Positions 1,105-20,907 of a DNA stretch of 45,137 bases are shown piece by piece. Within the stretch, counting starts at the first letter, position 1. Each line of letters opens with the position of its first letter. The DNA is taken from IMG/VR virus record IMGVR_UViG_3300049070_000098, positions 1 through 45,137 of that record; one strand, written 5' to 3'. Source of the DNA: a virus. Taxonomy: Duplodnaviria > Caudoviricetes. The notes under the pieces were generated by a model. The model made no database searches and was not told the DNA's origin. It saw only the letters and a list, made by a program, of their open reading frames with translations. Position numbers and translations under genes: made by a program.

Positions 1105-1133
1105 AGCATAATGTCGGTAAATTTTTCTGTAAA
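1105..1133 (-). promoter_or_regulatory. Leftward promoter TTTACA-N17-TATGCT driving the packaging/structural arm
   Basis: Matches the TTTAC-N17-TANNNT family found 8 times in this genome. Confidence 0.7.
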
Positions 1134-1599
1134 CAGATAAGTGGCGCGGATGTCGAGGGTCTTGAACTAATAACCTCAATTCGGGGGCCACCTAAGTTGT
1201 TCTGAGGGAGGTGCTTATGGCATATTACGGATCTAATAACTTGCACAAAATTTTCCTGGATCGCAGGTCATCCGCATCGTAAATCCTAGAACTTGCAGAT
1301 TTATCCGCATCGCAGGTTGCTAGGAATGACGAGGCAGGAATTTAGGTTGGTTTCCCCATGATGATGATCCTGAAAAGACCCCCTGGGCCCATGTTTTGTG
1401 AATCTTCGATGGGGTTCCTGGCTATTGACGCGCTCGCCGACTAGCACGAACCCCTTGATATGCGATGAGGAGCCGCGATCATGAGTCGGAGCTCATCCAA
1501 CTAGCACCCGAATTGACCTTTTATGATTCAGGACACATGTTACCATCGACCCCTCATCCATCACCAATCGGCCAAAAACAATCAATCGTTTCCAAAACT

Positions 1600-1770
1600 G
1601 TTATTGGCGTTATTAACCCCGTATATTACCCTAATACAATGTCCTCTATATAGGGCCGTGAACGAGTTATTACGGTTATTAGAGTTATTGACCTTTTTAA
1701 AAAATTGATCACTCAAAAATCATGTCTCATTTTATCCTACACCAATATCTCTAATAATAGCACAATACCG
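1600..1770. repeat. GTTATT repeats at 9-bp spacing next to an AT-rich palindrome; candidate replication origin
   Basis: GTTATT at 1600, 1609, 1666, 1675 and 1684; TTTTTAAAAA near 1694-1703; located in the divergent intergenic region. Confidence 0.5.
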
Positions 1771-1783
1771 ACATCCTAAGTAA

Positions 1784-1812
1784 TTGACTGGAATATACTT
1801 ACAACTTATTAT
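1784..1812 (+). promoter_or_regulatory. Sigma70-type early promoter TTGACT-N17-TATTAT
   Basis: Near-consensus hexamers with a 17-bp spacer upstream of the first + strand genes. Confidence 0.65.
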
Positions 1813-1885
1813 CCGAATAATATTCGTAAATATCAACTTAACACCAGCTCCAAACCCTATCAGGGACTAATAAGCTTCTCCTCTT

Positions 1886-2071
1886 ATGCATCTACGAACA
1901 CACTTCCTATATAAGGACCAAGCACACCATTTCGCTTCCCTCATCATATCGTTCCCAAAACTACACACACTATTTTGCTACGAACATCCTGCGCCAACAA
2001 GCCATTATGAAGAGCCGGGCTTATTGTCACAGGATCTTCTACCAAAATTCAACGTTCGTTCCTCACGTTGA
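1886..2071 (+). CDS. Possible small early protein
   Basis: 61-aa ORF downstream of the 1784 promoter; no motif. Confidence 0.3.
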   Translation: MHLRTHFLYKDQAHHFASLIISFPKLHTLFCYEHPAPTSHYEEPGLLSQDLLPKFNVRSSR

Positions 2072-2104
2072 CCGTGTCTGTAGTTTTACTTAAAAAGGAA
2101 CGAT

Positions 2105-2362
2105 ATGATGAGGGAAGCTCCAAAATACAAAATACAAGGTAAAATACACGTCGACCAAGAAGAGGACAACTCCTACACTGTATCGCTCCAACACGCCACC
2201 ATCACCGATAAACGCAACAACAAATATCCCCTCACCAACGACCTCGACAAGTTTAACGTAAACAACCCCAACATTCACCTCGCACGCTCCGAATTCTTTC
2301 AACGCTGGACGCAATACACAAAGCGTCGCTTCGGTTGCTTCATATTCCTAACCCTCGAATAA
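2105..2362 (+). CDS. Hypothetical early protein
   Basis: AAGGA SD upstream; C/A-ending codon bias; tandem gene packing. Confidence 0.65.
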   Translation: MMREAPKYKIQGKIHVDQEEDNSYTVSLQHATITDKRNNKYPLTNDLDKFNVNNPNIHLARSEFFQRWTQYTKRRFGCFIFLTLE

Positions 2363-2366
2363 TCAT

Positions 2367-2585
2367 ATGCAACACGTCATAAATATCGTAATCGACATCC
2401 AAGCTCCAATCACCACTGTACCATTCGCAAAAGCACACCAGGACTTCAAGCACAACATCGCTGAATACGTCCAAGAGCAAATCATCAAGCTCGAAGGATC
2501 CGACACCAAATCAGAAGTTCAAGCACTCCTCATTGACACATACGACTGCATCATCCCACTCGGATACGCACTCACTAAAATTTAA
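2367..2585 (+). CDS. Hypothetical early protein
   Basis: Tightly packed ORF with the same codon bias. Confidence 0.65.
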   Translation: MQHVINIVIDIQAPITTVPFAKAHQDFKHNIAEYVQEQIIKLEGSDTKSEVQALLIDTYDCIIPLGYALTKI

Positions 2586-2589
2586 CCCG

Positions 2590-2618
2590 TTTACAACACT
2601 ATGATCGCAATATACGAT
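2590..2618 (+). promoter_or_regulatory. Promoter TTTACA-N17-TACGAT (leaderless, ATG at 2625)
   Basis: Promoter family match; ATG 6 nt after the -10. Confidence 0.6.
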
Positions 2619-2624
2619 ACAAAG

Positions 2625-2915
2625 ATGGCCAAACCCCAAACCATCTTCCCAGACCTCCTCATCATGCACAAGCTCTATAACGACGCCAAATTTGACGAAT
2701 ACGCGTGTCACTGCACCGAAACCCCAGAACACTGTAGCTGCATCCTTGACTGGTGCACCCAAACCCTAAGCGAAGACGGAACACGCTTCTGCTTCGACAT
2801 ACAATCCAACTTTTGGATCGCGCTTTTCAAACCACCACTCCCCAAGCCATATCGAATCGACCTAATTCACCACACAGCAGACCACCTCTGGATCACCCAC
2901 TTCCTACTCAACTAA
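2625..2915 (+). CDS. Hypothetical early protein, Cys-rich (CHC...CSC), possibly metal-binding
   Basis: Start moved from 2601 to 2625 to fit the leaderless promoter geometry. Confidence 0.6.
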   Translation: MAKPQTIFPDLLIMHKLYNDAKFDEYACHCTETPEHCSCILDWCTQTLSEDGTRFCFDIQSNFWIALFKPPLPKPYRIDLIHHTADHLWITHFLLN

Positions 2916-2916
2916 C

Positions 2917-3081
2917 ATGAAGACGCTACTATCAATCTGCATCCTCATAAATCGAATACAAATCACTTTCCAAATCAAAATGCTTTCGAAGCCGGTCAAG
3001 TCACAGCCGACTCCGATAACACACCACGTGACAATAAACCGCGATCACATTGATCGCTACATCAAAACACACCATGAGTAA
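2917..3081 (+). CDS. Small hypothetical protein (54 aa, not in ORF track)
   Basis: MKTLLSICILINRIQITFQIK...HHE; fills the gap and overlaps the next ATG at 3074. Confidence 0.45.
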   Translation: MKTLLSICILINRIQITFQIKMLSKPVKSQPTPITHHVTINRDHIDRYIKTHHE

Positions 3082-3694
3082 ACCAACCAAATACCAAGGT
3101 CCCGAAATCTATCGCGACCTCAACCAAGACAACAAGAACCTCAAGCTCTGCCTCATCTTTCCCGAGGGCAGCGACCCCAAGTGGCATAAGTATTTAAGCC
3201 GCAAGGACTGCACCCTCACCGACAAGGACATCAAAATGTGCTACGTCGACTGGGATGCCCTCGAACAGGACAAGCAATGGCAACTCCCACAACTCGAAGA
3301 AGAACACAAAAAACTCTTCAACGCACCCATCCCCAACAAGCTAAACCGTGCTGAAGCCACCGTCATCATCTACCACAAATGGTGCGCCCTCGCCATCGAC
3401 CACACCAAAGATGCCAAGTCCTCTGGCAAGAAATCCACACTCGATTCACGCGTCTACACTCGAGTCTTCGTTGACGGAAAAGCTACCACAGCAAACCTCA
3501 AAACTCCCCAAGCAATGGCATGCCTCAAAATCTTCGAAGAATCCATGAATGACAAGCACCAAATTACCGAAGCCGAACTCAAAGCCAAGATAATTGAACG
3601 CGCTGCCGAACTCAAAACCCGACAAGACCCCTGGAGAATCTTCCAATACTATCGACCGCAACTCATCCAGGCCAAACTCATCACCCACAACTAG
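3074..3694 (+). CDS. Early protein with C-terminal putative winged-helix DNA-binding domain
   Basis: C-terminal PQA...TRQDPWRIFQYY domain shared with 5715..6071. Confidence 0.7.
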   Translation: MSKPTKYQGPEIYRDLNQDNKNLKLCLIFPEGSDPKWHKYLSRKDCTLTDKDIKMCYVDWDALEQDKQWQLPQLEEEHKKLFNAPIPNKLNRAEATVIIYHKWCALAIDHTKDAKSSGKKSTLDSRVYTRVFVDGKATTANLKTPQAMACLKIFEESMNDKHQITEAELKAKIIERAAELKTRQDPWRIFQYYRPQLIQAKLITHN

Positions 3695-3739
3695 CCAATC
3701 ACGCGAACGGGGAAGTCACTAACCCTTCGCATCAACAAT

Positions 3740-3982
3740 ATGCAAAATAAAGCTTTTCTCACAATCATTCTTCCAGGACAAATCATCAGTGTCGAAAATA
3801 ATCACATCAAAATTTCCGTCGAACCAGGCCCTCCACCCATTACCGAAAAATTCTTTGACGAAATGCACAAACAACTTGGAGCTACCAAAGCCATACGACT
3901 ACATGATGAATTAGTTGATGACATAACCGAACGCTATATTCAACAACTAATTCGCATCGAATCCACCAAATATGAGTCGTAA
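3740..3982 (+). CDS. Hypothetical early protein
   Basis: ORF with regional codon bias, coupled to the next ORF. Confidence 0.6.
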   Translation: MQNKAFLTIILPGQIISVENNHIKISVEPGPPPITEKFFDEMHKQLGATKAIRLHDELVDDITERYIQQLIRIESTKYES

Positions 3983-4076
3983 ACGCGCATCACGAATCTG
4001 GCTCCTTCTCACCCTCCTCATTCCCCTATGCTTGTGGATACTATGCCAAATTCTCCGGCATAAGATCCTCAAGTAA
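3972..4076 (+). CDS. Small single-pass membrane protein (34 aa, not in ORF track)
   Basis: MSRKRASRIWLLLTLLIPLCLWILCQILRHKILK: basic N-terminus plus a TM helix. Confidence 0.55.
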   Translation: MSRKRASRIWLLLTLLIPLCLWILCQILRHKILK

Positions 4077-4091
4077 CCTTCTCCCTTCACC

Positions 4092-4286
4092 ATGGCGGAA
4101 CTAACCACTCCGCCACTCTTCATTCCAGGACTCGGCCCGCATGTGCGGCTTACCGCTTGTTTTCTGAGCAACAGCGAGGGAAACAGACTGGAAGATGTGT
4201 TACCACAGGACAAAATTGGGCACTCAATTATATACCCTAATTGGCCATGCGGCCCACCTAAAGGTTCATTGCGTGACGACTCGTAA
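4092..4286 (+). CDS. Hypothetical protein
   Basis: 64-aa ORF filling the gap before the next promoter. Confidence 0.4.
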   Translation: MAELTTPPLFIPGLGPHVRLTACFLSNSEGNRLEDVLPQDKIGHSIIYPNWPCGPPKGSLRDDS

Positions 4287-4319
4287 TGCCACAATGATAA
4301 ATGGATCATAACTATGCAG

Positions 4320-4348
4320 TTTACTTGATATGCATCCCGTGATATGTT
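4320..4348 (+). promoter_or_regulatory. Promoter TTTACT-N17-TATGTT (leaderless, GTG at 4355)
   Basis: Promoter family match; start codon 6 nt after the -10. Confidence 0.65.
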
Positions 4349-4354
4349 ACTTAT

Positions 4355-4606
4355 GTGAAAGAACAAGAAAATCAAGTCGATATCGAGAACCCCGGATGGG
4401 AGGCACTGCATGCATATCGACTCTACATATACCCAAATAACCTCGTAGTGCTGACAAATGCCTCTGAAACAGAGTTCAGGGCAGCAGTTACTAGGATGGG
4501 AAAGCTTGCTGAAGAGGGGAATGGCAAGAATATCGAGGAGGTCCTCTACAACATGGGATTCTTCGCGGTAGCGGGTAATTACACGGGAGTGGAAGTGGAC
4601 TTCTAA
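4355..4606 (+). CDS. Hypothetical protein
   Basis: ORF begins at the predicted TSS. Confidence 0.65.
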   Translation: MKEQENQVDIENPGWEALHAYRLYIYPNNLVVLTNASETEFRAAVTRMGKLAEEGNGKNIEEVLYNMGFFAVAGNYTGVEVDF

Positions 4607-4623
4607 CCTTATGAGGAAATCTT

Positions 4624-4854
4624 ATGAGCAACGAACAGCGAGACAGCCGGGAACCCCTGAATCGGACCTTCAATCCGGAGGACATTCGGGTGGGGGATCG
4701 AGTCAGGCTCCGTGACAAGGTCACGGAAAAGCCAACGGGTCCAGTGATGCGAGTGCAGCATGTGGGCGGAACATACAACAATAAGGTGTATTGCGCGGAA
4801 ATCGGACACGAGCTTTACGCGACCCTCTTCAAGAGGGTGGGAGGTGCGAGGTGA
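4624..4854 (+). CDS. Small SH3/KOW-like protein (DUF2158/YodC-like pattern)
   Basis: GAGGA SD; IRVGDRVRL...GPVMRV motif. Confidence 0.55.
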   Translation: MSNEQRDSREPLNRTFNPEDIRVGDRVRLRDKVTEKPTGPVMRVQHVGGTYNNKVYCAEIGHELYATLFKRVGGAR

Positions 4855-5031
4855 AATACACCCTTGCGGACAATGAACGACAAGCTCTGCTTCATCAGGG
4901 ACACTCTCGTTCCTGATCTGCGTGAGAGTGGCAGAGATGCAACAGCAGACGATTTTGAGGTGCTCTGTGACCATGGTGGAGCAATTGGTTGTGGAGGGAC
5001 GACCACCAGAGAACCAACTAACCAACTAACT

Positions 5032-5295
5032 ATGTTTACCATCTGGAAGTTTGAACTCGCTGATGTGGATGAGCAGGTGATTGAGATGCCACAAGATGCG
5101 AAGATCTTGTCGACGCAGGTTCAGGTCAGCACTATTTGTTTGTGGGCGATCGTGGATACGAAAAAACCTCGCGTCGGACGACAATTCATCACGCTTGGGA
5201 CTGGGCAACCATATCCACTGGATTGTGACCTGAAGTTTATTGGAACAGTTCAGCAGGGCTCCCTCGTCTGGCACATCTTCGAGGTTGGGTTGTGA
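5032..5295 (+). CDS. Conserved-looking small phage beta-rich protein; an in-frame upstream extension from 4864/4873 is possible
   Basis: TIWKFEL...ICLWAIVD...GTGQP...FIGTVQQGSLVWHIFE pattern common in phages. Confidence 0.65.
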   Translation: MFTIWKFELADVDEQVIEMPQDAKILSTQVQVSTICLWAIVDTKKPRVGRQFITLGTGQPYPLDCDLKFIGTVQQGSLVWHIFEVGL

Positions 5296-5513
5296 AGCTC
5301 TGGTGCGTCTACCACGTGAGCCTGAGGAGGACCCCGATCTCCCTACTGAGGAGGCACACTCCCATGTTCGCGTGTTCATGGAGGTGGGCGGCAAATCTCT
5401 GGATGACCCTGTATTGGTGGTGGCACTATGAGTCGTGCTACATTCAGGAGGCATTCGAGGATGAGATGCCACGAGCTGATTGGGTGGAGGATCACGTGCA
5501 GGAGGGGCCATAG
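5292..5513 (+). CDS. Hypothetical Trp-rich protein
   Basis: GTGA overlap with the upstream stop. Confidence 0.45.
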   Translation: MKLWCVYHVSLRRTPISLLRRHTPMFACSWRWAANLWMTLYWWWHYESCYIQEAFEDEMPRADWVEDHVQEGP

Positions 5514-5541
5514 TTTGTGGCTACGAAAGAGCATTTCCAAG

Positions 5542-5570
5542 TTTACAGATGAGTTTTTGCACACTATAGT
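5542..5570 (+). promoter_or_regulatory. Promoter TTTACA-N17-TATAGT
   Basis: Promoter family match upstream of the structured leader and 5715 gene. Confidence 0.7.
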
Positions 5571-5580
5571 GTATGCGGAT

Positions 5581-5686
5581 TATGAGTCATCGACAACGTG
5601 GATGGCAGAAAACCGCCATGTGTCCGGCCTTCCCCGGATTCCTCGACATCGCGCTAGTATCCCATCCACGTTCTCGGTGACTCATG
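5581..5686 (+). ncRNA. Rod-like structured RNA / 5' leader
   Basis: 5581-5593 pairs with 5674-5686; 5595-5605 with 5662-5672; inner TCCGG/CCGGA hairpin. Confidence 0.6.
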
Positions 5687-5714
5687 CAACAACAAACCAA
5701 AAGAAAGGTAACGT

Positions 5715-6071
5715 ATGGCAGCTCCAGTAGCCAAGGGCACGAAGGCCCCGGCAACCACAGTAACACCCCCAGCCGCGCCGGATAAGGCCGCCGAGAAGGC
5801 AGCCAAGGAGGAGAAAGCGGCGAAGGATCGATTCATTCGCGTCATGAAGGACGGGAAGGGCGTCGACTCCAACGGGAAGAAGCTCCCGCCCCAGGCGCAG
5901 GGCATTTGCAACATCCTCGAAGCGGCTGGCGACAAGGGCCTGACGCGCGAAGAACTCGTGGCGAAGATGAAGGGCGTCATCCAGACCCGTCAGCCCGAGG
6001 GTCGCATCCTGTCCTATTACCAGAAGGCCATCGTTGCGCGCGGCATGGTGAAGCTCGTCGAGGGCGCGTAG
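5715..6071 (+). CDS. Basic putative DNA-binding (winged-helix-like) protein with Ala/Lys/Pro-rich N-terminal tail
   Basis: Strong AAGAAAGG SD; strongly C/G-ending codons; PQA...TRQPEGRILSYY domain paralogous to 3074..3694. Confidence 0.8.
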   Translation: MAAPVAKGTKAPATTVTPPAAPDKAAEKAAKEEKAAKDRFIRVMKDGKGVDSNGKKLPPQAQGICNILEAAGDKGLTREELVAKMKGVIQTRQPEGRILSYYQKAIVARGMVKLVEGA

Positions 6072-6085
6072 CCCGTCAACAGCAC

Positions 6086-6130
6086 GAGTGGCGTGATCCA
6101 CAAAGGTGAGATCACGCCACTCCTCTGTTT
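6086..6130 (+). terminator. Intrinsic terminator-like hairpin
   Basis: GAGTGGCGTGATC/GATCACGCCACTC 13-bp stem followed by CTCTGTTT. Confidence 0.65.
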
Positions 6131-6156
6131 ACGGATACAATCATCTGTGATATATT
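6128..6156 (+). promoter_or_regulatory. Promoter TTTACG-N17-TATATT (leaderless, ATG at 6163)
   Basis: Promoter family match; ATG 6 nt after the -10. Confidence 0.65.
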
Positions 6157-6162
6157 GCTACT

Positions 6163-6327
6163 ATGGATGAACAACTAATAGCTGAAGCAAAGGCGCATCG
6201 CCTGTGGCCTGCGTTTGAGGATTATGCTGTTGAGGAAAACATAGGCCTCGGGGAGCCTGACGATTGGTTTCCATGGTGGTCATGCTTCAAAGCGGGAATA
6301 GATGCCCAAATAGCGGAGGAATCTTGA
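6163..6327 (+). CDS. Small acidic protein (54 aa, not in ORF track)
   Basis: MDEQLIAEAKAHRLWPAFEDYAVEENIGLGEPDDWFPWWSCFKAGIDAQIAEES; starts at the predicted TSS. Confidence 0.65.
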   Translation: MDEQLIAEAKAHRLWPAFEDYAVEENIGLGEPDDWFPWWSCFKAGIDAQIAEES

Positions 6328-6332
6328 TTTAT

Positions 6333-6451
6333 GCGAGGGTGGCGGAATGGTAGACGCTATGGGCCCGAGGCCGGTGTCAGGATTGGGACCCACGTACGGG
6401 GTATCACCCACATAAATCCAATCCATGCAGGTTCGAGTCCTGCCCCTCGCT
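6333..6451 (+). tRNA. Aberrant tRNA-like RNA (Leu/Ser-type D and T arms, degenerate anticodon arm, enlarged middle)
   Basis: Acceptor GCGAGGG/CCCTCGC; D arm GCG-GAATGGTAGA-CGC; T arm GCAGG-TTCGAGT-CCTGC; 69 nt between D and T arms; no encoded CCA. Confidence 0.75.
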
Positions 6452-6462
6452 TCAATATTTTC

Positions 6463-6559
6463 GAGTGGGCGGGTGGAATGAGCCACGGAGTTCTATGAAA
6501 AGCACGTCTTCGACCGCGGCAAGTTACGTGCTCTCGTCGGTGGCGGCCCAGTCCCACTC
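6463..6559 (+). ncRNA. Putative structured ncRNA (irregular long hairpin)
   Basis: GAGTGGG/CCCACTC, GCCAC/GTGGC, AGCACGT/ACGTGCT and CTT/AAG nested helices; intergenic. Confidence 0.55.
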
Positions 6560-6568
6560 CTTACTTTT

Positions 6569-6778
6569 ATGGGAATGATGCGGAACATTTATCGACGTGC
6601 GCAGAAGATTGAGGCGCTCGTGACGAATCCACACTGGGAGCCGGCTCGCATTGTGCGGCTCAGCCAGCTGATTCAGGATGAATTGAACGTGGTCGAGGAG
6701 TTCATGGCTGGGCGAGTTACTCAGGAGGAGTTGGAGAAGAAGGCGAAGGATATTCAGGAGCGTGAGGATAAGATCTAA
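6569..6778 (+). CDS. Hypothetical helical protein
   Basis: ORF between two structured RNAs. Confidence 0.6.
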   Translation: MGMMRNIYRRAQKIEALVTNPHWEPARIVRLSQLIQDELNVVEEFMAGRVTQEELEKKAKDIQEREDKI

Positions 6779-6782
6779 TTTA

Positions 6783-6900
6783 CTGGGGTCATGAGGAAGT
6801 CAAGTGTGATAGTGTGGGAACTGTACACCTACACCGGCACAAAGCCGTGGTTCGGGACAAGCGGCTGGACCAAACCCGACGGTCCCCTCATGACTCTCAG
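6783..6900 (+). ncRNA. Putative multibranch ncRNA with complementary (kissing) loops
   Basis: P1 6786-96/6886-96, P2 6812-18/6828-34, P3 6843-48/6861-66, P4 6867-71/6881-85; loops TCGGG and CCCGA are complementary. Confidence 0.6.
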
Positions 6901-6906
6901 CTTTTT

Positions 6907-7092
6907 ATGACGCAATACTTCAACATCCGCGTTAAGCGAAACAATACTGGCGAAGAGCTGGCGAGCCCGGAGCTCATCAGCGAACTCTTCGCATACCTAG
7001 TGGAACACCCATACTCGGTAGTCGAAGTAACTGAGGACGTCCAGGCCCGTGGCTTGGGCGAATCTATCGAGGAACCAGAGCGACCGGAGTAG
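6907..7092 (+). CDS. Hypothetical acidic protein
   Basis: Start moved to ATG 6907, after the RNA structure. Confidence 0.55.
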   Translation: MTQYFNIRVKRNNTGEELASPELISELFAYLVEHPYSVVEVTEDVQARGLGESIEEPERPE

Positions 7093-7141
7093 GAACTATG
7101 GTAAGTCAATACAAATGTGATGTCTGTGGCATCAAATCGCT

Positions 7142-8062
7142 ATGAACTCTAACTTCCGACCAATGCTTGCGGTTAACGCGGACGACATCAATGAGCTTAC
7201 CTACCCGCTATATGGGAGCTTTAAGCTTGATGGGATAAGGTGCTACTGTGCGGCACTGGTTCCACCACCAGGAGACTCGTGCGTGCCCCTCACCAGAACC
7301 CTGAAGATCCTCCCAAATGCCCATGTTCGCGACAAACTGGCCAAACTTCCGCCAGGGTTTGATGGGGAGCTGATGTGTGTGGGCGGGTTTCAGGCCGTGC
7401 AGTCCGCATTCATGACGAGGCATGGATTTCCGGAATTCACCTACAACGTCTTTGACTGGGTCCCTGATAGTTGGGAGAGGGCCCCGTATTGTGAACGGCT
7501 GCTTAGGCTTCAAGATATGTGCATCAGGGCTCTGAAGGAGGAACACCATTTCGTTAGGTTCCTCAACCAGCGGACACTACACAATCCCGATGAAGTGCAT
7601 GCGATGACGCAAGAGGCGTGGACCGAGGGCCACGAGGGGTTGATCCTAAGGTCAATGCATGGGCACTATAAGTTTGGTAGATCCACTCTGCGGGAAAGAC
7701 TCCTCCTGAAGGTTAAGCAGTTCGAGGATGCTGAAGCCGAGGTCATAGGGTTTGAGGAGTTGGTGCGCAATGAGAACGAGCCTGAGCGTAATGCGCTCGG
7801 ATATCAGGAGCGGAGCTCCCACAAGGAGAACATGGTTCCAGGTGGGACGCTTGGGGCGCTAAAGGTTCGTGACCACGCTGGAGTTGAGTTCTGCATAGGC
7901 ACTGGGTTTACACAAACACAACGCGACCTGATATGGGCGGAACGCAACAACCATATGGGTAGGATCGTTAAGTATCGTCACCAGCCTCATGGGAGACTCC
8001 ACCTGCCACGAATACCCACGTTCCTTGGATTCAGGGATAGGGAGGACATGTCGTATGAGTAA
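7142..8062 (+). CDS. lig: ATP-dependent DNA ligase
   Basis: KLDGIR adenylation motif, FDGEL, EGLILR, LLKVKQF and an OB-fold GTGF...P.FLGFR end. Confidence 0.95.
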   Translation: MNSNFRPMLAVNADDINELTYPLYGSFKLDGIRCYCAALVPPPGDSCVPLTRTLKILPNAHVRDKLAKLPPGFDGELMCVGGFQAVQSAFMTRHGFPEFTYNVFDWVPDSWERAPYCERLLRLQDMCIRALKEEHHFVRFLNQRTLHNPDEVHAMTQEAWTEGHEGLILRSMHGHYKFGRSTLRERLLLKVKQFEDAEAEVIGFEELVRNENEPERNALGYQERSSHKENMVPGGTLGALKVRDHAGVEFCIGTGFTQTQRDLIWAERNNHMGRIVKYRHQPHGRLHLPRIPTFLGFRDREDMSYE

Positions 8063-8231
8063 GCCCAAGCCAAGAATTCGTAGCGTTGATGTGAAGCCTC
8101 GCGATCAGAAGTGGATTGAGTGGGAGAAGCGATACGCCCAGGGAAAGGTTGAGGAGCATATCAAGTTCGCACCCTCAAAGAAGCCACTTGGCCCGGGGCG
8201 GTCCGCTAAATTGGCATCGAAGGACTGGTGA
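8055..8231 (+). CDS. Small basic hypothetical protein
   Basis: GGAGG SD; overlaps the ligase stop. Confidence 0.5.
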   Translation: MSKPKPRIRSVDVKPRDQKWIEWEKRYAQGKVEEHIKFAPSKKPLGPGRSAKLASKDW

Positions 8232-8452
8232 TGACTCGAGTTCTGGGCCAGTATCACTTTGGGGAGTTCATCGCTGAGGCGCGAGTGACGCACTATGGCA
8301 CGAGCGATAACCTCACCTACAGGATTGAGTGGCTGCCTGACAAGGTATTCACCTATACACTCATTGGAGCATCCCAGCCCCGCGCATCCCATGGCAGGGA
8401 GCTAATGCGTCAGCTGTGGTCACAGGTTAGGGAGCACTACGAAATAACATGA
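8228..8452 (+). CDS. Hypothetical protein
   Basis: Coupled by 4-bp overlaps on both sides. Confidence 0.6.
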   Translation: MMTRVLGQYHFGEFIAEARVTHYGTSDNLTYRIEWLPDKVFTYTLIGASQPRASHGRELMRQLWSQVREHYEIT

Positions 8453-8751
8453 CAAAATTACGCTGGAGGTTGTTACTAGTTCAAGACGCTATTTACTATT
8501 GGTTCTGGGAAAAGGTGGTGGCTTGGCGTAGGAAGCACCATAAAAATTGTCGGTGTGCGTGTGGATATACATGTGGTGGTCCTGGTCGATGCAAAGAGGA
8601 TCTGTTTGAGGTCTGTATTCCTCAGCACTGGAAACGAGACTGTGACCACAATTGGAATGGCCCATACATTAGAGTGGGTCTCGGATTTTCAATAACCTGT
8701 AAGCATTGTGGGTGCACTGCGATGCACCACGACTGTGTTGTTGGCCCATAA
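8449..8751 (+). CDS. Cys/His-rich putative zinc-binding protein
   Basis: CRCACGYTC, CDHNW and CKHCG motifs; ATGA overlap. Confidence 0.6.
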   Translation: MTKLRWRLLLVQDAIYYWFWEKVVAWRRKHHKNCRCACGYTCGGPGRCKEDLFEVCIPQHWKRDCDHNWNGPYIRVGLGFSITCKHCGCTAMHHDCVVGP

Positions 8752-8784
8752 TCCCGTAACGCTGAACCAATGAAAATTTTCAAG

Positions 8785-8813
8785 TTTACAACCCGTTTTT
8801 ACCGATATATACT
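8785..8813 (+). promoter_or_regulatory. Promoter TTTACA-N17-TATACT heading the DNA-modification/polymerase operon
   Basis: Near-consensus family match. Confidence 0.75.
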
Positions 8814-8820
8814 GTCACTA

Positions 8821-8913
8821 TTGAGCACAGCCAATGACCATGTTGTCGAACTACTACTGTTCTGCACCGTGATACTTTGGCTGATCACCCTGAAAGTAAT
8901 CATATATGGCTGA
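8821..8913 (+). CDS. Possible 30-aa membrane peptide (not in ORF track)
   Basis: TTG near the TSS; MSTANDHVVELLLFCTVILWLITLKVIIYG; stop overlaps the next ATG. Confidence 0.4.
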   Translation: MSTANDHVVELLLFCTVILWLITLKVIIYG

Positions 8914-9226
8914 ACAAAATTGGGCGGAGGAACTTTGGAAGGTGTATTATACCCACAAAATTAAGGGCAAGGTCCTGGACCTTGGACGAGTGGGAAAGAT
9001 ACGCGAGGCCTTCATGCAGGGCATGCACGCGGGCGGAGACCTCGTGCTAAAATTCGCCAAACTTTCGGATCAGCGATGCGTTGAATGCATCAAGGAGTTT
9101 CGCGATCAGATCGTGGCTGCCCTCCACGGAGCCAACGTCCTCAATGCCGACATTAGGACGGAGCTTCCATCAGTTATTCGCCCCGGGGGCGGGGATTATC
9201 GTCCTCGAAATGGGAGGCCTCGATGA
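8906..9226 (+). CDS. Hypothetical protein
   Basis: Coupled to the methyltransferase by ATGA; REAFMQGMHAG is a common phage motif. Confidence 0.65.
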   Translation: MAEQNWAEELWKVYYTHKIKGKVLDLGRVGKIREAFMQGMHAGGDLVLKFAKLSDQRCVECIKEFRDQIVAALHGANVLNADIRTELPSVIRPGGGDYRPRNGRPR

Positions 9227-10083
9227 GCAATGCACGAAAGAAAGCCGTCGACACCACTTACCTATCTCTTGATACCGCCGAAGAGCGGGGATTCATCCAC
9301 AGGGACTATATCGCCCACTGCATGCGTTGGTCGCACGTTGTTCGCGAAATCACTGTCAAGCGCAACTATGAGCGAGCCATCCTGCTTGATGTTGGATGTG
9401 GTCGGGAACTCCCCCTCGCCAAACTTCTATATTCGTCTCGATTACACCCACGCCAATATGTGGGGGTTGATTACGGGCCAGTAGAGGACGCGGCGATGGA
9501 GGTCTTCCACACCGGGAAGTTCCCCCTCACAGTGTATGAGAGGACGGACTTCTGTGACCTCATTCCCGAGAATTTTCCTGATGGTCAGCCTAACTGGGTG
9601 ACCTGCTTCGAAGTGCTTGAGCACGTCGAGCCCGAGCACATGGTGAGGATGCTGAAACATCTCAAGACCCTCGTGACCAAGGATGCGCGGCTATTCTTCT
9701 CCACCCCCTGCTACAACCACCAGGACTTGGCCGCCAACCACGTGAGCGAGATCACGTATGAGGCGCTCGGAGCTGTGTTCTCTGCCCTTGGATTTCACGT
9801 CAATGGCGTATGGGGAACATTCGCATCAATACGCGACTATGAGCAGGGGCTATCAACACGAGGAATAAGTCCTGAGCTGTTCAACAGCTTACGTGGCTAT
9901 TACGACGTGAATTTTCTCTCATGTGTTTTTGCACCCCTATTTCCAGCGCAGTCACGGAACTGCTTGTGGGAGTTAGGACTTGAGCCGAAACATACACGAT
10001 ATACTTTTCAGGACTTGGATGCCTGCAAAACCCCCTGGACTTCGTCTGAGAATTGGGAAACCCTAAGGGAGGCCGTCAAGTGA
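9223..10083 (+). CDS. Class I SAM-dependent methyltransferase (small-molecule type, not a canonical DNA MTase)
   Basis: LLDVGCG motif I, YVGVD, CFEVLEHV, FFSTP; no DPPY/NPPY/SPPY or C5-MTase PCQ motif. Confidence 0.9.
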   Translation: MSNARKKAVDTTYLSLDTAEERGFIHRDYIAHCMRWSHVVREITVKRNYERAILLDVGCGRELPLAKLLYSSRLHPRQYVGVDYGPVEDAAMEVFHTGKFPLTVYERTDFCDLIPENFPDGQPNWVTCFEVLEHVEPEHMVRMLKHLKTLVTKDARLFFSTPCYNHQDLAANHVSEITYEALGAVFSALGFHVNGVWGTFASIRDYEQGLSTRGISPELFNSLRGYYDVNFLSCVFAPLFPAQSRNCLWELGLEPKHTRYTFQDLDACKTPWTSSENWETLREAVK

Positions 10084-10406
10084 CTGGAACTTGGAAAGCA
10101 CCCGATAGGACGATACACACCTCGAAGGGGGATGTGACGATTGAAACTTATCACGCAGTGGAGATGTTGATGCGCCTCCCAGGTAAGATGGTCGCGTGCC
10201 ACAGCCTAACCACGGGCCAGATAATCACAGTTGCCGAGGACGAAATAACTTATGATACAAATCGAACCAATGCAGCTGGAGCGGATCCTAAGCCGGCTCC
10301 AGAGAACAGTCAAGGAGAACAGCAACTCCCTATCAGTGGAGGGGCAGATAGTTCAGGCGATAGGCGTGTTGCTTCAGGCGATCCAGCTCCGAAACCAACC
10401 AACTGA
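10080..10406 (+). CDS. Hypothetical protein (3' half overlaps the next gene)
   Basis: GTGA coupling at 10080; low-complexity tail in the overlap. Confidence 0.4.
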   Translation: MTGTWKAPDRTIHTSKGDVTIETYHAVEMLMRLPGKMVACHSLTTGQIITVAEDEITYDTNRTNAAGADPKPAPENSQGEQQLPISGGADSSGDRRVASGDPAPKPTN

Positions 10407-10860
10407 CTTCTTTGGGGACATCGCGCAGTTTCATCACAAATTCGGGCTGGCATATCAGGGAGCACCTCGATTCCTTGATGAGGACACCCAGGAGCATCGA
10501 ATACTTACCCTTGATGAGGAGCTTCGCGAATATGCTGAGGCTATTGTGGCAAAGGACCTCGAGAAGCAATTCGACGCGCTGATCGACCTCGTCTACTTTG
10601 CCCTTGGAACTGCCCATTTGCATGGATTCCCGTTTCGTGAGGGCTGGGTGCGCGTTCATGACGCGAATATGCGAAAAGTTCGCGCCAAGCCTGATGGGTC
10701 AGACAGCAAGCGCGGTGCGGATGGCAAGGGGTTCGCCTGTGACGTGATCAAGCCGCCCGGATGGGTGGTGCCTCGACTCTATGACCTCATGGGGCTGCCC
10801 GAACCAAAACCCAAGATCAAGCTACCTGAAGTTACTGATGAAGAACCTAATAATAGTTGA
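10252..10860 (+). CDS. MazG-like / all-alpha NTP pyrophosphohydrolase (putative dCTPase)
   Basis: FHHKFG, LDEELREY, DALIDLVYFALG, VHDANMRK and KPPGW motifs. Confidence 0.88.
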   Translation: MIQIEPMQLERILSRLQRTVKENSNSLSVEGQIVQAIGVLLQAIQLRNQPTDFFGDIAQFHHKFGLAYQGAPRFLDEDTQEHRILTLDEELREYAEAIVAKDLEKQFDALIDLVYFALGTAHLHGFPFREGWVRVHDANMRKVRAKPDGSDSKRGADGKGFACDVIKPPGWVVPRLYDLMGLPEPKPKIKLPEVTDEEPNNS

Positions 10861-11365
10861 GGGACCCGACTGCTCGGGCAAGTCTACGCTCGCAAAATAT
10901 CTCGTGCACAGGCTAGGGGGCGTATATTGGCATGCATCAGGCCATCGTCACCTCCACGGCGGGATGGGTGCATACCACGCCAACATCATCGAGAATATTG
11001 AGTGGAACTTGCGACACAATCCACAGTGTGCTCCAATCATCCTCGATAGGTCTTGGATCTCGGAATATGTCTATGCGAACATATTTAGGCCCGCTTATCG
11101 TGGTCTATTTCCCTATGAGGCAGTACGAGAACGAATCAAGATCCTCGGGGGAATTTACATCATATGCGACCATGAGAAGATCCTCGAACTTCATGATAAG
11201 GAGCGTAATCCAGAGCATGCCTACACCAACGCTGACTTCTGGCGCGTGGTGCAGGATTATCGAATGTTCTGGAAGGAGCATAGGGACGATGACGACTACG
11301 CACACTACGACATGAATAAGCAGACACATCAGCAGGTCGCTGAGATGATCCTGAGGTGGGAATGA
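10838..11365 (+). CDS. P-loop deoxynucleoside monophosphate kinase (thymidylate-kinase-like)
   Basis: IIVEGPDCSGKST Walker A and ILDRSWISEYVY. Confidence 0.88.
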   Translation: MKNLIIVEGPDCSGKSTLAKYLVHRLGGVYWHASGHRHLHGGMGAYHANIIENIEWNLRHNPQCAPIILDRSWISEYVYANIFRPAYRGLFPYEAVRERIKILGGIYIICDHEKILELHDKERNPEHAYTNADFWRVVQDYRMFWKEHRDDDDYAHYDMNKQTHQQVAEMILRWE

Positions 11366-12174
11366 GCGCAATGTCAGCAACTTGGGAATGGAAGAGGCTG
11401 CTCCAGATCCTCTTCAACACTGGTGTGGACGTTAGTCCTCGAGGACAGCCAACCCTGGAGGTGATGGGCCACGTCTCAAAGATCAACATGCGTCGCCCAG
11501 TGATCAACCTGCCAGCTCGGGGGCTCAACTATCGATTCATGGCCGCTGAAGCCTTATGGACCCTGTCTGGGTCAAACAGGGTTTCGGAAATTGCGCAGTA
11601 TTGCAAGCATTGGGAGAGGTTCTCGGATGATGGCATCTTCCTTAGAGGATCATATGGCCCGATGTTTGTGGAGCAGGTTGGCTATGTGGCGGACTGCTTG
11701 ATTCGGGACCCCTTAACCCGGCAAGCCGTCATGTCGTTTTGGCGGGTTAATCCACGGGACAGTAAGAACATCCCATGCACCCTGACGATTCAATTCCTCG
11801 TTAGAGACGCGATAATTCATGCGGACGTGACGATGCGTTCATCTGATGCTTGGCTGGGTTGGCCGTATGACGTGTTCACGTTTAGTATGATCACGTGGTA
11901 TGTCGCCTTGATGGTGAATCTGAAGCGTGGGAAGGGGTGTATTGCAGAGCTAGGTGACCTGACCATCTTCGCTGGGTCCCAGCACCTTTATCAGGAACAC
12001 TGCATGGTTGCGCGTGAGTGCATGAATGCGAAGTGGTCACCACAGGATGATGTTGTGTATAGTTTGACTCAGTTTAATCATCCTGAGGACATATTGGATT
12101 ATTTGGGTAACGCTATCGTTGAGCCTAATAAGACTTTTGAGAGGAGTCCAACAACAAGGCTTGTTATCCCGTGA
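11362..12174 (+). CDS. Thymidylate-synthase-fold enzyme, predicted dCMP (hydroxy)methyltransferase
   Basis: Catalytic PC, MRSSD..LGWPYD with Asp at the position of E. coli ThyA Asn177, and SQHLY. Confidence 0.85.
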   Translation: MSAMSATWEWKRLLQILFNTGVDVSPRGQPTLEVMGHVSKINMRRPVINLPARGLNYRFMAAEALWTLSGSNRVSEIAQYCKHWERFSDDGIFLRGSYGPMFVEQVGYVADCLIRDPLTRQAVMSFWRVNPRDSKNIPCTLTIQFLVRDAIIHADVTMRSSDAWLGWPYDVFTFSMITWYVALMVNLKRGKGCIAELGDLTIFAGSQHLYQEHCMVARECMNAKWSPQDDVVYSLTQFNHPEDILDYLGNAIVEPNKTFERSPTTRLVIP

Positions 12175-14090
12175 GGCGACGATATAACACCACTAAGTCT
12201 GAGGGCTTGTGCGGCACGTTGTTCGCCCCAACCTCAGATTGGATGCCTCCCGCTCGATTCCCAAATCTTAAGGGCGTCAAGAAGATTGGCCTCGACACTG
12301 AGACCAATGATCCGAACCTCCATGAACGTGGTCCAGGATTCATACGCGGTGATGCCCACGTAGCTGGCGTGAGTGTCGCGACAGATGATGCTAGGTGGTA
12401 TTTCCCAACCAGACACCTTGGTGGGGGAAACATGAATCCTGACGCTGTTAATGCGTTCCTCACGGACCTACTCAAGGAGGAGCGCTGGATCATTGGAGCG
12501 TCGCTCCTATATGATCAGGAGGCGTTGTGGTCGACTGGAATTACGATCAACCCCAAGTCCAGGCTCATCGACGTTCAAATCGCTGAAGCCATCCTCGAGG
12601 AGGAGCGTGACCGCAACTATAAGCTTGAGACCCTGTGTCAGGACTATCTTGACACGGGCAAGGACGAGACACTTTTGAGGGAAGCCGCGAGTGCTTATGG
12701 CGTTTCTACTAAAGAGGGCCTATGGAAGCTTCACTCAAAATACGTGGGGTCTTACGCAGAATTTGATGCGTGGGCCCCACTAAAGATTTTCGAGAAGCAA
12801 TATGAACGACTTAAGAGTGACGACCTACTTCGGATCTTTGAGCTCGAATCACGGCTGCTGCCTCTTATCTGGAAGATGCGACTCAATGGAATTCCTGTGG
12901 ATCTTGAAGCGGCGGCATCCCTTAGTGCGACACTTAAGGAGCGTGAGGGGGAAGCTAGAGTCCAAATGCGGAGAGACCACGGTCATGATGTGGACGTATG
13001 GTCGGGAGATCAGCTGGCAGCTGTATGTGACAAGCTTGGGATCAGCTACCCCAGGACGCCCAAGGGGAATCCGTCCTTTGAGTCAGAGTTCCTGGAATCG
13101 GATGAGCACGAGCACGCTTTCCTTAGATCTGTTGGAAACATTAGAAAGCTTAATCGATTTCGTTCGACCTTTATCGATGACTGGATATTCGGGAATCAGA
13201 TTCGCGGCAAGGTTCACCCGGAATGGCGACAGCTTATGTCTGACGAAGGTGGAACTAGAACCGGACGAATGGCTGCAGCGAATCCTAACCCGCAGCAAGT
13301 CCCCGCCGACAAATTTCGAGATGGACGTCCTAATGCTATTGGCGAGGCCATAAGGAAGTGCTTCGTGGCTCGACCGGATAAGTGGGCGAAGATTGACTAC
13401 TCGCAGCAGGAGCCCCGCATACTGGTCCACTACGCATTCATCTGTGGGATGGCTGGTGCTGAGGCCGCACGCGATGGATACGCGGCTGATCGTAAGATGG
13501 ACATCTACCAGTTCCTTGCGAATGCCGCCCAGATAACTCGGCGCCACTCGAAGGACATGACGCTCGGGCGAATGTATGGCATGGGCAAAAACAAGCTGGC
13601 GTCCAAGATCGGGGTATCCGTCGCAGAGGCGGAAGCCCTACTCCAAAAATTTGACGCACACGTTCCATTCGTTAAGGAGATGGCAGATACGGCAAGCAGA
13701 TTAGCGAATCAGCGCGGATGGGTCCAGACACTGTGCGGTAGGAAGCGTCACTTCAACATGTGGGAGCCACGCTTCCAGAAGGGTGAGCGTCCGATGCCCA
13801 ACTTAGACGCCGCCCGAGCCAAGTGGCCGAATGAGACGCTGACGCGCTATGGTGCCCACAAAGCCCTGAACTCGCTAATCCAGGGTTCTGCTGCTGACAT
13901 GGTTAAGTCTGCGATATTGGCAGTCCATGATCAGATGGGCTTGGTCCCATTCATGGCTGTTCACGATGAGATTGACTATGGAGTTCCGGACGAGGAGACG
14001 GCCAAGAAGATACAGCACATCGCGGAGAATTGCGTTGACATGAAGGTCCCCATTGTGGCGGATCTATCCATAGGAGACCACTGGAAATGA
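12171..14090 (+). CDS. polA: Family A DNA polymerase with 3'-5' exonuclease
   Basis: LDTET exo I, TRTGR, DYSQQEPR (motif A), KDMTLGRMYG (motif B), IQGSAAD and VHDE (motif C). Confidence 0.97.
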   Translation: MRRRYNTTKSEGLCGTLFAPTSDWMPPARFPNLKGVKKIGLDTETNDPNLHERGPGFIRGDAHVAGVSVATDDARWYFPTRHLGGGNMNPDAVNAFLTDLLKEERWIIGASLLYDQEALWSTGITINPKSRLIDVQIAEAILEEERDRNYKLETLCQDYLDTGKDETLLREAASAYGVSTKEGLWKLHSKYVGSYAEFDAWAPLKIFEKQYERLKSDDLLRIFELESRLLPLIWKMRLNGIPVDLEAAASLSATLKEREGEARVQMRRDHGHDVDVWSGDQLAAVCDKLGISYPRTPKGNPSFESEFLESDEHEHAFLRSVGNIRKLNRFRSTFIDDWIFGNQIRGKVHPEWRQLMSDEGGTRTGRMAAANPNPQQVPADKFRDGRPNAIGEAIRKCFVARPDKWAKIDYSQQEPRILVHYAFICGMAGAEAARDGYAADRKMDIYQFLANAAQITRRHSKDMTLGRMYGMGKNKLASKIGVSVAEAEALLQKFDAHVPFVKEMADTASRLANQRGWVQTLCGRKRHFNMWEPRFQKGERPMPNLDAARAKWPNETLTRYGAHKALNSLIQGSAADMVKSAILAVHDQMGLVPFMAVHDEIDYGVPDEETAKKIQHIAENCVDMKVPIVADLSIGDHWK

Positions 14091-14443
14091 CCGAATACGA
14101 GCCAGTTAAAGTTGAGCGTAAATATCCGATTGGCAAGTTTGGGCGTCCAGATAAGAAGCGACGTCCCATACGTGTGTATCGAGCGAAGTTGGAAGAATTG
14201 TCGGAACTGAAGTGGGCCGCGCTACGAGACATCCAATACCTTAATGATCGGATCGCTAATGAAGTTCTTGACGAAGCGGAGCGCAAGTTGATAGATGATC
14301 AGCTTGCAGAAGCAAGGCGATACCTTACTCAGTATGACGACTATATGCGTCAAATACGGACAACCCCGTATCGAGATGCACGTCCCAAGAAGAAGCAGCG
14401 TGAGGAGGCATACAAGACGCCTGAACCATACGAGGGGCCATGA
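14087..14443 (+). CDS. Hypothetical basic coiled-coil protein
   Basis: ATGA-coupled on both sides. Confidence 0.65.
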   Translation: MTEYEPVKVERKYPIGKFGRPDKKRRPIRVYRAKLEELSELKWAALRDIQYLNDRIANEVLDEAERKLIDDQLAEARRYLTQYDDYMRQIRTTPYRDARPKKKQREEAYKTPEPYEGP

Positions 14444-14829
14444 CTGAAAAGGAGCTCTACGCTAAGTTGCGAGAAATTCTGCCCGGGGATTTTCTTCGTG
14501 TTGAGAATGGCGTTGCCCTTGGTGTTCCAGACATTAACGTCTGCTATCAGGGTCTTGAGGTATGGATCGAGGCGAAGCTGGAGCTTCCTCAGGGTGTCCT
14601 CCTCAGGAAATTCCAATATGCTTGGGGTATCAAGAGGACGGGGTTTGGTGGCGTGGTGTTCTTGATCGCGCAGTGTTATACCCGTCCGTCAATATTTCTT
14701 GTGTGGCCGTGGGATGGCATTAAGGTCCAGCCGTATGGAAACTACTTAAAAGTGGTTGCATGCCCTGCAGCCATATTTGATGTAAGGACAAAGCGACAGG
14801 AATTTGTTAACTACATATTTAATGCATAG
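14440..14829 (+). CDS. PD-(D/E)xK nuclease, VRR-NUC / Holliday-junction-resolvase-like
   Basis: E...RVEN...GVPD...WIEAK...Q motif. Confidence 0.85.
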   Translation: MTEKELYAKLREILPGDFLRVENGVALGVPDINVCYQGLEVWIEAKLELPQGVLLRKFQYAWGIKRTGFGGVVFLIAQCYTRPSIFLVWPWDGIKVQPYGNYLKVVACPAAIFDVRTKRQEFVNYIFNA

Positions 14830-14840
14830 ATATTTACATG

Positions 14841-14869
14841 TTTACAACCGTAACACGGAGCATTATACT
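14841..14869 (+). promoter_or_regulatory. Promoter TTTACA-N17-TATACT (leaderless, ATG at 14876)
   Basis: Promoter family match; ATG 6 nt after the -10. Confidence 0.75.
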
Positions 14870-14875
14870 TAATAT

Positions 14876-15463
14876 ATGACCGATGAAATTCTGCTAAATC
14901 CGTTAACCGGGACGCCCATCAGTGATGCGGACGTCCAATCCATTGCCGAACTAGCCCGTCAGCAGTATCGGCTAGAGAAGAGCATCGAACTTCTGGAGAA
15001 GAGCCTCAAGGAAAAGAAGGAGGAGCTTCTCAAGCTTCAAATGGTCCTCATCCCGGCGAGGATGGAGCAGGTCGGTATGCAGGAATTTACCCTCAAGGGT
15101 AAGGAGGTCATCGCCAAACTTCGGGTCGATGACTTCTATTCGGCGAAGATTTCGGAGGAGAACGAGCTCAATGCCTTCAAGTGGCTTCGAGACAATGGTC
15201 ACGCTGGGATAGTCAAGACGCAGGTCGTCTGTAACTACACCCAGAAGGAGCAGGATCAGGTCAAGCGCCTGTTGAGCATACTCAGACGGAATCGAATTGG
15301 ATTCGATAAGAAGGACTCCGTCCATTGGCAAACCCTGCGAGCCTTTGTTCGTGAGATGAAGGAGGGTGGGAAACACATCCCCGATGATTTGTTCGGGGTA
15401 TTCGTGGGGAAGAAGACGAAGTTGACGATACTTTATGAAGCAAACCAAGTCGCGAGCGCTTAG
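14876..15463 (+). CDS. Conserved phage replication-module protein (coiled coil plus WLR.NGH...VH..TL.AFVRE)
   Basis: Motif pattern typical of the gene preceding the SSB in PolA/UvrD/SNF2 phage modules. Confidence 0.7.
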   Translation: MTDEILLNPLTGTPISDADVQSIAELARQQYRLEKSIELLEKSLKEKKEELLKLQMVLIPARMEQVGMQEFTLKGKEVIAKLRVDDFYSAKISEENELNAFKWLRDNGHAGIVKTQVVCNYTQKEQDQVKRLLSILRRNRIGFDKKDSVHWQTLRAFVREMKEGGKHIPDDLFGVFVGKKTKLTILYEANQVASA

Positions 15464-16259: not shown

Positions 16260-16264
16260 CTCCC

Positions 16265-16306
16265 AGCCCATGGCAGGACGAGCAACCCCTTGCCATGGGC
16301 TTCCTT
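16265..16306 (+). terminator. Terminator-like hairpin
   Basis: AGCCCATGGCAGG/CTTGCCATGGGCT stem directly after the stop codon. Confidence 0.6.
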
Positions 16307-16343
16307 AAGCCATGTGCCTATGATAGACGGGGCGTAACTAATC

Positions 16344-20902: not shown

Positions 20903-20907
20903 TAGCC

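Follow-up and report, generated by a model that had tools for sequence, protein, structure and literature searches.

A G-poor early region, possibly selected for unpaired RNA, co-occurs with a leader element over the start of the first gene in one clade of uncultured phages

The viral genome IMGVR_UViG_3300049070_000098 (Duplodnaviria; Caudoviricetes), whose 45,137 nt constitute the window analysed here, carries at the start of its early genes a tract in which G makes up about 14% of the plus strand, against 28% downstream. What removes one base from one block of genes? The genome is complete, circularly assembled, about 45 kb long and podophage-like, with early and middle genes on the plus strand up to 22.4 kb and late genes on the minus strand. 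Its DNA was traced to soil metagenome runs, one of which may be its source, and no RNA data set was listed among them. A preliminary description, made from the sequence alone, had marked positions 1780 to 4320 as a sharply bounded, G-poor and C/A-rich region, and had offered three explanations: (a) modified cytosine in the template strand, (b) RNA free of hairpins and R-loops during transcription-driven genome entry, or (c) a long Rho-loading tract. We show that the G-poor tract is real and not due to chance, and that it is accompanied by a module missed in that description, consisting of a small first gene (gp1) and an uncatalogued, covarying leader element that pairs over its start codon (Table 1). 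The explanation we prefer, tentatively and with somewhat less than even confidence, is a selection for unpaired immediate-early RNA tied to a gp1/leader switch.

The four hand counts of the preliminary description proved exact (G8/C22 at 2161-2220, G7/C22 at 3301-3360, G19/C9 at 4501-4560 and G25/C9 at 5461-5520). Base composition (%) is A33.1 C30.7 G15.2 T20.9 over 1780-4320, and A25.7 C23.8 G28.3 T22.3 over 4321-22400. The maximum likelihood change point for G on the left is at 1491 (2-log-likelihood interval 1477-1516; gain 52.6), about 290 nt to the left of the edge proposed before and in non-coding DNA. On the right it is at 4127 (interval 4093-4493; gain 63.7). The flip of the skew announced near 4320 falls within this interval, but its best place is just after the last early open reading frame (ORF; end 4076), about 190 nt before 4320. 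Real ORFs on either side of 4320 are all on the plus strand, as had been stated. Along the tract G climbs slightly rightwards, from 14 to 17-18%.

The early codons do end mostly in C or A. G occupies 13 of 244 four-fold degenerate sites (1 of 79 in the 206-aa early gene starting at 3074) versus about 27% in the middle genes, third-position T is likewise lowered, and Lys, Glu and Gln codons end in G in 32 of 127 early cases versus 75% in the middle genes. The seven early ORFs (627 codons) contain 279 G, where 404.5±8.8 would be expected with middle-gene codons; none of 2000 simulated recodings was as low (minimum 373). From the 28.5% of the middle genes, G declines to 21.5% via amino acids (fewer Gly, Val and Arg, more Ile, Thr and Lys) and then to 14.8% via codon choice, the floor being 12.0%. 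The stop codon is TAA in 35 of 48 early cases versus 45 of 107 elsewhere. Since the non-coding segments are as G-poor as the coding ones (12% G at 1491-1818, 10% at 1819-1933), a cause at the tRNA level alone is excluded.

The 206-aa gene has 110 homologues, and scans with the gene and its alignment returned 104 loci with a near-full gene, 68 of them non-redundant (loci are cited by L numbers). In the 41 non-redundant loci with at least 800 nt of middle genes, the log2 odds of third-position G in this gene relative to middle genes are -0.5 or below in 12 and above 0 in 29. In a midpoint-rooted FastTree phylogeny of 35 loci, based on methyltransferase (MTase), thymidylate synthase (TS) and MazG sequences, the 11 skewed loci cluster together. 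L180 is adjacent to them with weak support, and the unskewed L001, an uncultured phage and the sole public phage record matching the early region, is nested as the sister of L088 (support 1.0). Many unskewed relatives likewise prefer C-ending codons in the 206-aa gene; what is specific to the clade is the loss of G. This loss spares none of the eight four-fold boxes and no neighbour context (nine loci pooled; log2 odds -0.6 to -2.8). Pause motifs, palindromes, GATC, CG/GC and deaminase-type contexts were each considered as causes of the skew and do not explain it. A terminase-anchored scan recovered mostly unrelated phages, and among L002-L087 a comparable C-rich, G-poor window was found only partially, in L007. 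The genome scan for a host returned two metagenome-assembled genome contigs, both unskewed and not credible as host assignments.

Could the skew simply follow from the amino acids encoded, or from a recent import out of a C/A-rich donor? Amino-acid choice does account for about half of the G deficit relative to middle genes. The remainder is synonymous, and orthologues of the 206-aa gene differ mainly at the third position (G 0.144 vs 0.313). Synteny of this gene extends across the family, and relatives at about 35% protein identity have the skew in common. Moreover, unrelated gene families adopt the composition of their location across genomes: third-position G in families c19, c27 and c32 is 5-12% within the tract versus 26-39% outside. 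Because of this position effect, the synonymous loss and the conservation at about 35% identity, we consider neither amino-acid content nor recent import a credible source of the skew.

Explanation (a) supposes that C in the template strand is avoided because, once modified, it slows the unadapted host RNA polymerase, an obstacle lasting until some early protein acts. Loss of G on the plus strand equals loss of template C, and a sharp stop at an early terminator would fit. The genome indeed encodes a cytosine-type cassette: the best PDB match of its TS homologue is the CMP hydroxymethylase MilA, and it has Asp at the position of E. coli N177, a criterion for cytosine-modifying TS homologues (PMC13326640; this and the other PMC sources are cited for their accessible portions). 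The distribution of this feature does not follow the skew. Among the 68 loci (34 readable, 4 unreadable, 30 without TS in the stretch), Asp occurs in 34 of 34 readable ones, 11 skewed and 23 unskewed, and no relative lacking TS was found. At the L143 position, where homologues of this type are expected to have Asp or Glu, Asp is present in 33 of 35 loci listed, the window having Asn and one locus being unreadable. The sister pair of skewed L088 and unskewed L001 share the same ligase-MTase-MazG-kinase-TS-deaminase cassette. The G loss is independent of context, and C5 modifications affect bacterial RNA polymerases chiefly during initiation rather than elongation, which even phenyl-C did not slow in vitro (PMC4838386). 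Explanation (a) is thus very unlikely. As a separate observation, throughout the family the SAM-methyltransferase-like gene is fixed beside genes for MazG-like, kinase and cytosine-type TS proteins (9223-12174), and this cassette may make an undescribed C modification. A homologue of the L001 gene annotated as G:T/U glycosylase-like is present at 18111-18584; it also adjoins MTase-TS genes in the unrelated L002-L005.

The edges of the tract suggest that it behaves like an early transcription unit, starting just inside a putative genome end and closed by a terminator after the core early gene. On the left, a G[GA]CCCC(C)TGG motif is conserved family-wide. We read it as a putative genome end because four short-repeat model phages (T7, SP6, phiKMV and LUZ24) start with a C-run, located within the first 40 nt of their left end. 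Where both edges are covered (eight loci), the tract measures 2.6-4.6 kb and begins about 150-200 nt to the right of the motif and 258-541 nt before the leader element. With anchors picked by eye among the motif hits, 10 skewed loci have skew values of -0.2 to -0.4 from +200 onwards, whereas those of 21 unskewed loci are +0.06 to +0.28 from +100. On the right, 12 of 13 skewed loci, all but the window, have a terminator-like hairpin with U-run behind the core early gene. G rises by at least 3 points across it in 11 of the 12, and it lies inside the interval of the right change point in 5 of 7 loci; the terminator-like sites of seven unskewed controls exhibit no consistent G step. A TTTAC-type promoter-like site and the second winged-helix gene come after the terminator. 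As a possible sign of a terminal repeat, the summed contig depth over 1357-4121 was 2.4x, 1.5x and about 1.1x that of the downstream bins in three low-cover runs; it includes contigs of other organisms, cannot rank parts of the genome and was not used. The assembly overlap is 171 bases (1-171 and 44967-45137, one mismatch) and is spanned by the large terminase gene.

The leader element, about 185 nt long, is delimited by a perfect 22-bp inverted repeat in which 1934-1955 pairs with 2097-2118, enclosing a three-way inner structure. Its region folds at z -10.8. A perfect stem of 13-22 bp over the ATG, different in sequence each time, is found in 12 of 20 regions tested, the misses being mostly truncated or without gp1. 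The outer stem is anchored at the gp1 ATG in every case, its equivalent in L172 being 17 bp long. Two-sided changes occur in 22 of 29 pairs, a value reached by none of 500 shuffles, with 91% paired versus 31-44% in slid controls, in an alignment that was fitted to the structure model and is biased in its favour. The covariance model matched 13 of 98 sources, all skewed (10 training sequences, 2 near-copies and the new L172). In an IMG/VR pattern search it matched 4 of 94 hits, among them the new L278, which the element pattern alone had revealed and which is skewed upstream in the same way. Instances are L093:8976-9163 and L278:28-178. No Rfam family matched at gathering threshold in the window, nor at E≤5 over the element. 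Comparison by eye with consensus features gave no support to reading it as a ribozyme, a riboswitch, a sigma-54 site or an Frpo-like element. In L093 a second perfect inverted repeat of 34 bp (8925-8958 with 9186-9219) encloses the element and pairs into the gp1 coding region, and in L121:97-515 the element has a highly paired insertion of about 240 nt and retains its anti-start stem.

The gp1 profile matches skewed loci only. Among 49 non-redundant loci with at least 1.1 kb upstream (L121 being counted by gp1 and stem), the 12 with gp1/element are the 12 most skewed (-0.18 to -0.37), and the other 37 range from -0.12 to +0.30. L001 lacks gp1, element and skew alike. The predicted gp1 structure (pLDDT 84.6) bears a weak likeness to natural dsRNA-binding domains, HPF and HicB-N at Z≤5.8; the rows for dsRNA-binding domains and HPF have Z 4-5.8, rmsd 2.1-3 and 55-66 aligned residues, and none reaches 8. 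T7 Gp1.2 is also among the weak fold neighbours. There was no Atlas hit, and the Foldseek matches were all at E>0.001, none significant.

The leader and the terminators bear directly on explanation (c). Rho-dependent terminators are enriched in YC dinucleotides, and a rut site requires tens of bases only. Rho control could here mean that the leader stem blocks translation of gp1 and the C-rich RNA then loads Rho for premature termination, in the manner of P4 CI, or else titrates Rho. The composition is rut-like, as had been supposed: 487 of 1271 windows of 78 nt have a C/G ratio of at least 2, versus 29 of 2367 in middle DNA, and rut sites are likewise unstructured, C-rich and G-poor (PMC4496710). 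P4 employs leader pairing for premature termination (PMC4825925), and the window is without a strict intrinsic terminator. However, the tract spans kilobases, is mostly coding, and includes genes behind internal promoters; its YC dinucleotides are under-represented relative to synonymous shuffles (z -4.7), and in relatives the unit ends at intrinsic-type terminators. Weakened in this way, Rho control is a possible but rather unlikely explanation. With the P4 CI RNA/seqA-seqC immunity system and IsrK/SeqA-like leaders the element has in common a structured RNA ahead of the first early gene, arms that are complementary and, putatively, regulation through pairing (PMC4825925); arms complementary to the start region of the first gene, as in P4 CI and P1 c4, are indeed found. 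It has no Rfam match, and it differs in arms that pair perfectly together over the start codon and in inner wobbles that favour the opposite strand. Moreover, no integrase or repressor is seen here, and the accessible portion of PMC4825925 describes no operon-wide base bias for P4.

How does the tract RNA fold? Predicted folding energies per 120 nt are -19.5 kcal/mol for the sense strand of the tract, -29.5 for its antisense strand and -31.0 for middle genes. The hairpin part of explanation (b) is therefore retained, sense RNA being weakly folded and antisense RNA not. Its remaining part, fast and hybrid-free elongation for transcription-driven entry, fares less well. The tract lies at the presumed leading end, the pause consensus (type G-10 Y-1 G+1; PMC4496710) occurs 8.4 times per kb versus 38.3 in middle DNA, and the RNA:DNA minus DNA:DNA energy, about -0.01 versus -0.01 to -0.09 kcal/mol/nt in the middle region, is weaker in 8 of 8 loci. 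Yet the pause consensus is not avoided beyond composition (z +0.9) and YG is enriched; R-loop energetics are near neutral on both strands alike, and U, the best anti-hybrid base, is lowered. Six model phages have no such multi-kb tract at their left end. We regard fast entry as improbable.

Our preferred explanation runs as follows. The G-depleted block would be the first transcript of the phage, reaching from close to the left end of the genome as far as the first terminator, and selection would remove G, and some U, such that this RNA stays unpaired. The leader stem over the gp1 start codon would be its sole structure, acting as a switch. Unpaired start regions would let ribosomes load without Shine-Dalgarno (SD) sequences, and SD-less starts dependent on low structure (PMC6847099) would place the pressure along the whole unit; SD-like 4-mers precede 2 of 40 early starts (background 7.4%). 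With its dsRNA-binding-like fold, gp1 may bind paired RNA, either its own leader or a complementary antisense strand, and pairing elsewhere in the same message would then be harmful. Middle and late genes, expressed afterwards from canonical TTTAC-type promoters, would be free of the constraint. We favour this explanation because low self-pairing is a strand-specific and unit-wide property that travels with a module pairing over a start codon.

Several observations speak against it. Native early genes are slightly more stable than their synonymous shuffles (z 0.1 to -5.5), so that the weak folding of the sense strand results from composition only, not arrangement. The SD deficit is weakly informative, as the middle genes are also weak in this respect (26 of 104, versus 15.7% background). 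Since no canonical promoter is conserved upstream of gp1, transcription may not cover the segment 1491-1818, and a force acting on DNA would then be indicated. The G step comes 500-700 nt past the terminator-like hairpin in L093 and L135, and the window itself has only a weak hairpin in place of a strict terminator. Within the element, the minus strand folds better in 11 of 11 cases, the inner wobble pairs (16 G-U vs 2 A-C cells) favouring it, and a conserved minus-strand promoter was not found. The fold match of gp1 is below the level at which the tool is reliable. Finally, the co-occurrence of skew, gp1 and element amounts to one clade and one loss, and is weak as independent evidence. Selection for unpaired RNA leaves unexplained both a skew starting in possibly untranscribed DNA and the minus-favouring inner pairs with no visible promoter.

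These same observations lend some weight to a single-stranded minus (template) strand. If this strand is long exposed by resection, strand displacement or single-stranded DNA (ssDNA) entry, deamination would make it G/T-rich, and the element would be a folded ssDNA signal such as a priming site or single-strand promoter. The changes run in the direction that minus-strand C->T and A->G events would give (G and T down, C and A up on the plus strand), the skew sets in close to the putative end and outside coding sequence, the minus strand is favoured by G-A pairs as well as by the wobbles, and the phage encodes an AEP-PriCT primase and a family A polymerase. On the other hand, the right edge tracks terminators, four-fold A gains 7 points against the 13 lost from G, there is no deaminase-type context, G rises slightly rightwards, the outer stem is always anchored on the gp1 ATG, and the replication genes are common to non-skewed relatives. 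Such an origin is unlikely. A comparable bias is that of the vertebrate mitochondrial light strand, A/C-rich and G-poor with very low four-fold G, in a system with a family A polymerase; there it is genome-wide and mutational. The tract differs in being confined to one unit, tracking the terminator and the gene/leader module.

Two further explanations turn on the activity of early proteins. In the first, a factor made early, or a response of the host, would cleave RNA at unpaired G or deplete GTP; co-expressed RNA would be G-poor for this reason, and the leader stem would limit a toxic factor. G is avoided in all contexts, unpaired G amounts to 0.044 per nt versus 0.081, residual G is paired at 0.74 versus 0.719±0.008 in shuffles, and HicB-N, HPF and T7 Gp1.2 are among the weak fold neighbours of gp1. 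But no nuclease or GTP-acting protein was identified among the early genes, middle genes have a like excess of paired G (0.69 vs 0.679), and GG is not specially avoided (z -0.7); a G-directed shut-off is, in our opinion, improbable. In the second, the module would serve take-over by telling self from host RNA through pairing: gp1, made first, would act on paired RNA (host messages or ribosomes, with its own leader as feedback) and the G-purged early transcript would escape; or else the folded minus strand would be an ssDNA promoter or primer site of the entering end. This is speculative and rather unlikely.

The early region of T7 carries RNase III stems. The long perfect stems of the present phage could be RNase III sites as well. 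T7 also resembles it in having an end-proximal early unit read by the host RNA polymerase and closed by an annotated terminator, TE. It differs in that low G in T7 is limited to the first 500 bases (G16/C24), with normal values beyond them, and that the present phage has no RNA polymerase gene: none is annotated in the genome, and no virion RNA polymerase annotation was found among 13 scanned late and other proteins. A multi-kb G-poor tract at the left end is absent in T7, phiKMV, LUZ24, T5, N4 and SP6 (6 of 6). In Autographiviridae, the leading region is also a first-entering region under its own sequence selection, there through avoidance of a type I restriction-modification motif (PMC12455610); here one base is lost in every context, and palindromes are less avoided in the tract. 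That motif avoidance is the nearest precedent we found, no description of such a tract having been encountered in a literature search that covered mostly open-access main texts. The accessible portions of PMC11551762 and PMC12360218 contain nothing bearing on base bias.

Table 1. Features of the early region and its surroundings in the window.
Feature	Position	Strand	Remark
Promoter-like site TTTACA-17-TATGCT	1105..1133	-	heads leftward late operon (lysis-like gene, small terminase)
G[GA]CCCC(C)TGG motif, conserved family-wide	1377..1390	+	putative genome-end/terminase signal
G-poor, C/A-rich tract, G 14.2%	1491..4127	+	probable immediate-early transcription unit
Five GTTATT[AG] repeats beside A/T runs	1600..1690	+	candidate protein-binding array (origin or operator)
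Sigma-70-like site TTGACT-17-TATTAT	1784..1812	+	place not conserved in relatives
Branched RNA/ssDNA element, conserved	1934..2118	.	outer 22-bp perfect stem covers gp1 start
gp1, 84-85 aa	2105..2362	+	predicted beta-beta-beta-alpha fold; skewed relatives only
Three small non-conserved early ORFs	2367-2585, 2601-2915, 2917-3081	+	
Promoter-like site	2590-2618	+	among the three small early ORFs
Early gene, 206 aa, conserved family-wide	3074..3694	+	predicted C-terminal winged helix
Last two G-poor ORFs (80 aa; 34-aa hydrophobic peptide)	3740..4076	+	
6-bp hairpin with weak pyrimidine tail, at right edge	4094..4114	+	candidate degenerate terminator; fails strict rule passed by relatives
Family-type promoter-like site TTTACT-17-TATGTT	4320..4348	+	heads normal-G middle genes
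Winged-helix paralogue of the 3074 gene, normal G	5715..6071	+	just beyond tract in relatives
Cytosine-modification cassette: SAM methyltransferase-like, nucleotide pyrophosphohydrolase, kinase, dCMP-type TS homologue	9223..12174	+	outside tract

Around the putative end, a counterpart of the leftward promoter-like site is found in 6 of 10 skewed loci. Five of the eight forward GTTATT[AG] copies of the genome sit in the repeat array of Table 1, and GTTATTA ranks first among the 7-mers of 7 out of 8 tracts. Together with copies at 1168 and 1234, inverted copies of the repeat flank an AT-rich core near the presumed genome end, and in several relatives the conserved word ACAACTTA comes after the repeats. 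The winged-helix paralogues, of which some relatives have three, share an invariant TxQxxxRI..YY motif and match no Pfam or PHROG family, nor do the early proteins in general, for which Foldseek likewise gave nothing significant. A 40-nt inverted repeat (80%) at 5582-5685 lies upstream of the second winged-helix gene, just past a promoter-like site at 5542-5570.

The phage thus tunes base composition over what is probably one transcription unit, so strongly that synonymous sites, amino acids, stop codons and incoming genes are all reshaped. The family provides its own control, as some members with the same cassette have the gp1/leader/tract module and others lack it; the rival ideas of RNA structure, Rho, modified bases and single-stranded entry can be put to the test by synonymous recoding. 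Besides an uncatalogued covarying element, the analysis provides a sequence-only marker of the likely leading end in uncultured genomes. Should the discrimination of self from host RNA, or the ssDNA promoter, turn out to be true, an operon-scale nucleotide alphabet would be a regulatory device.

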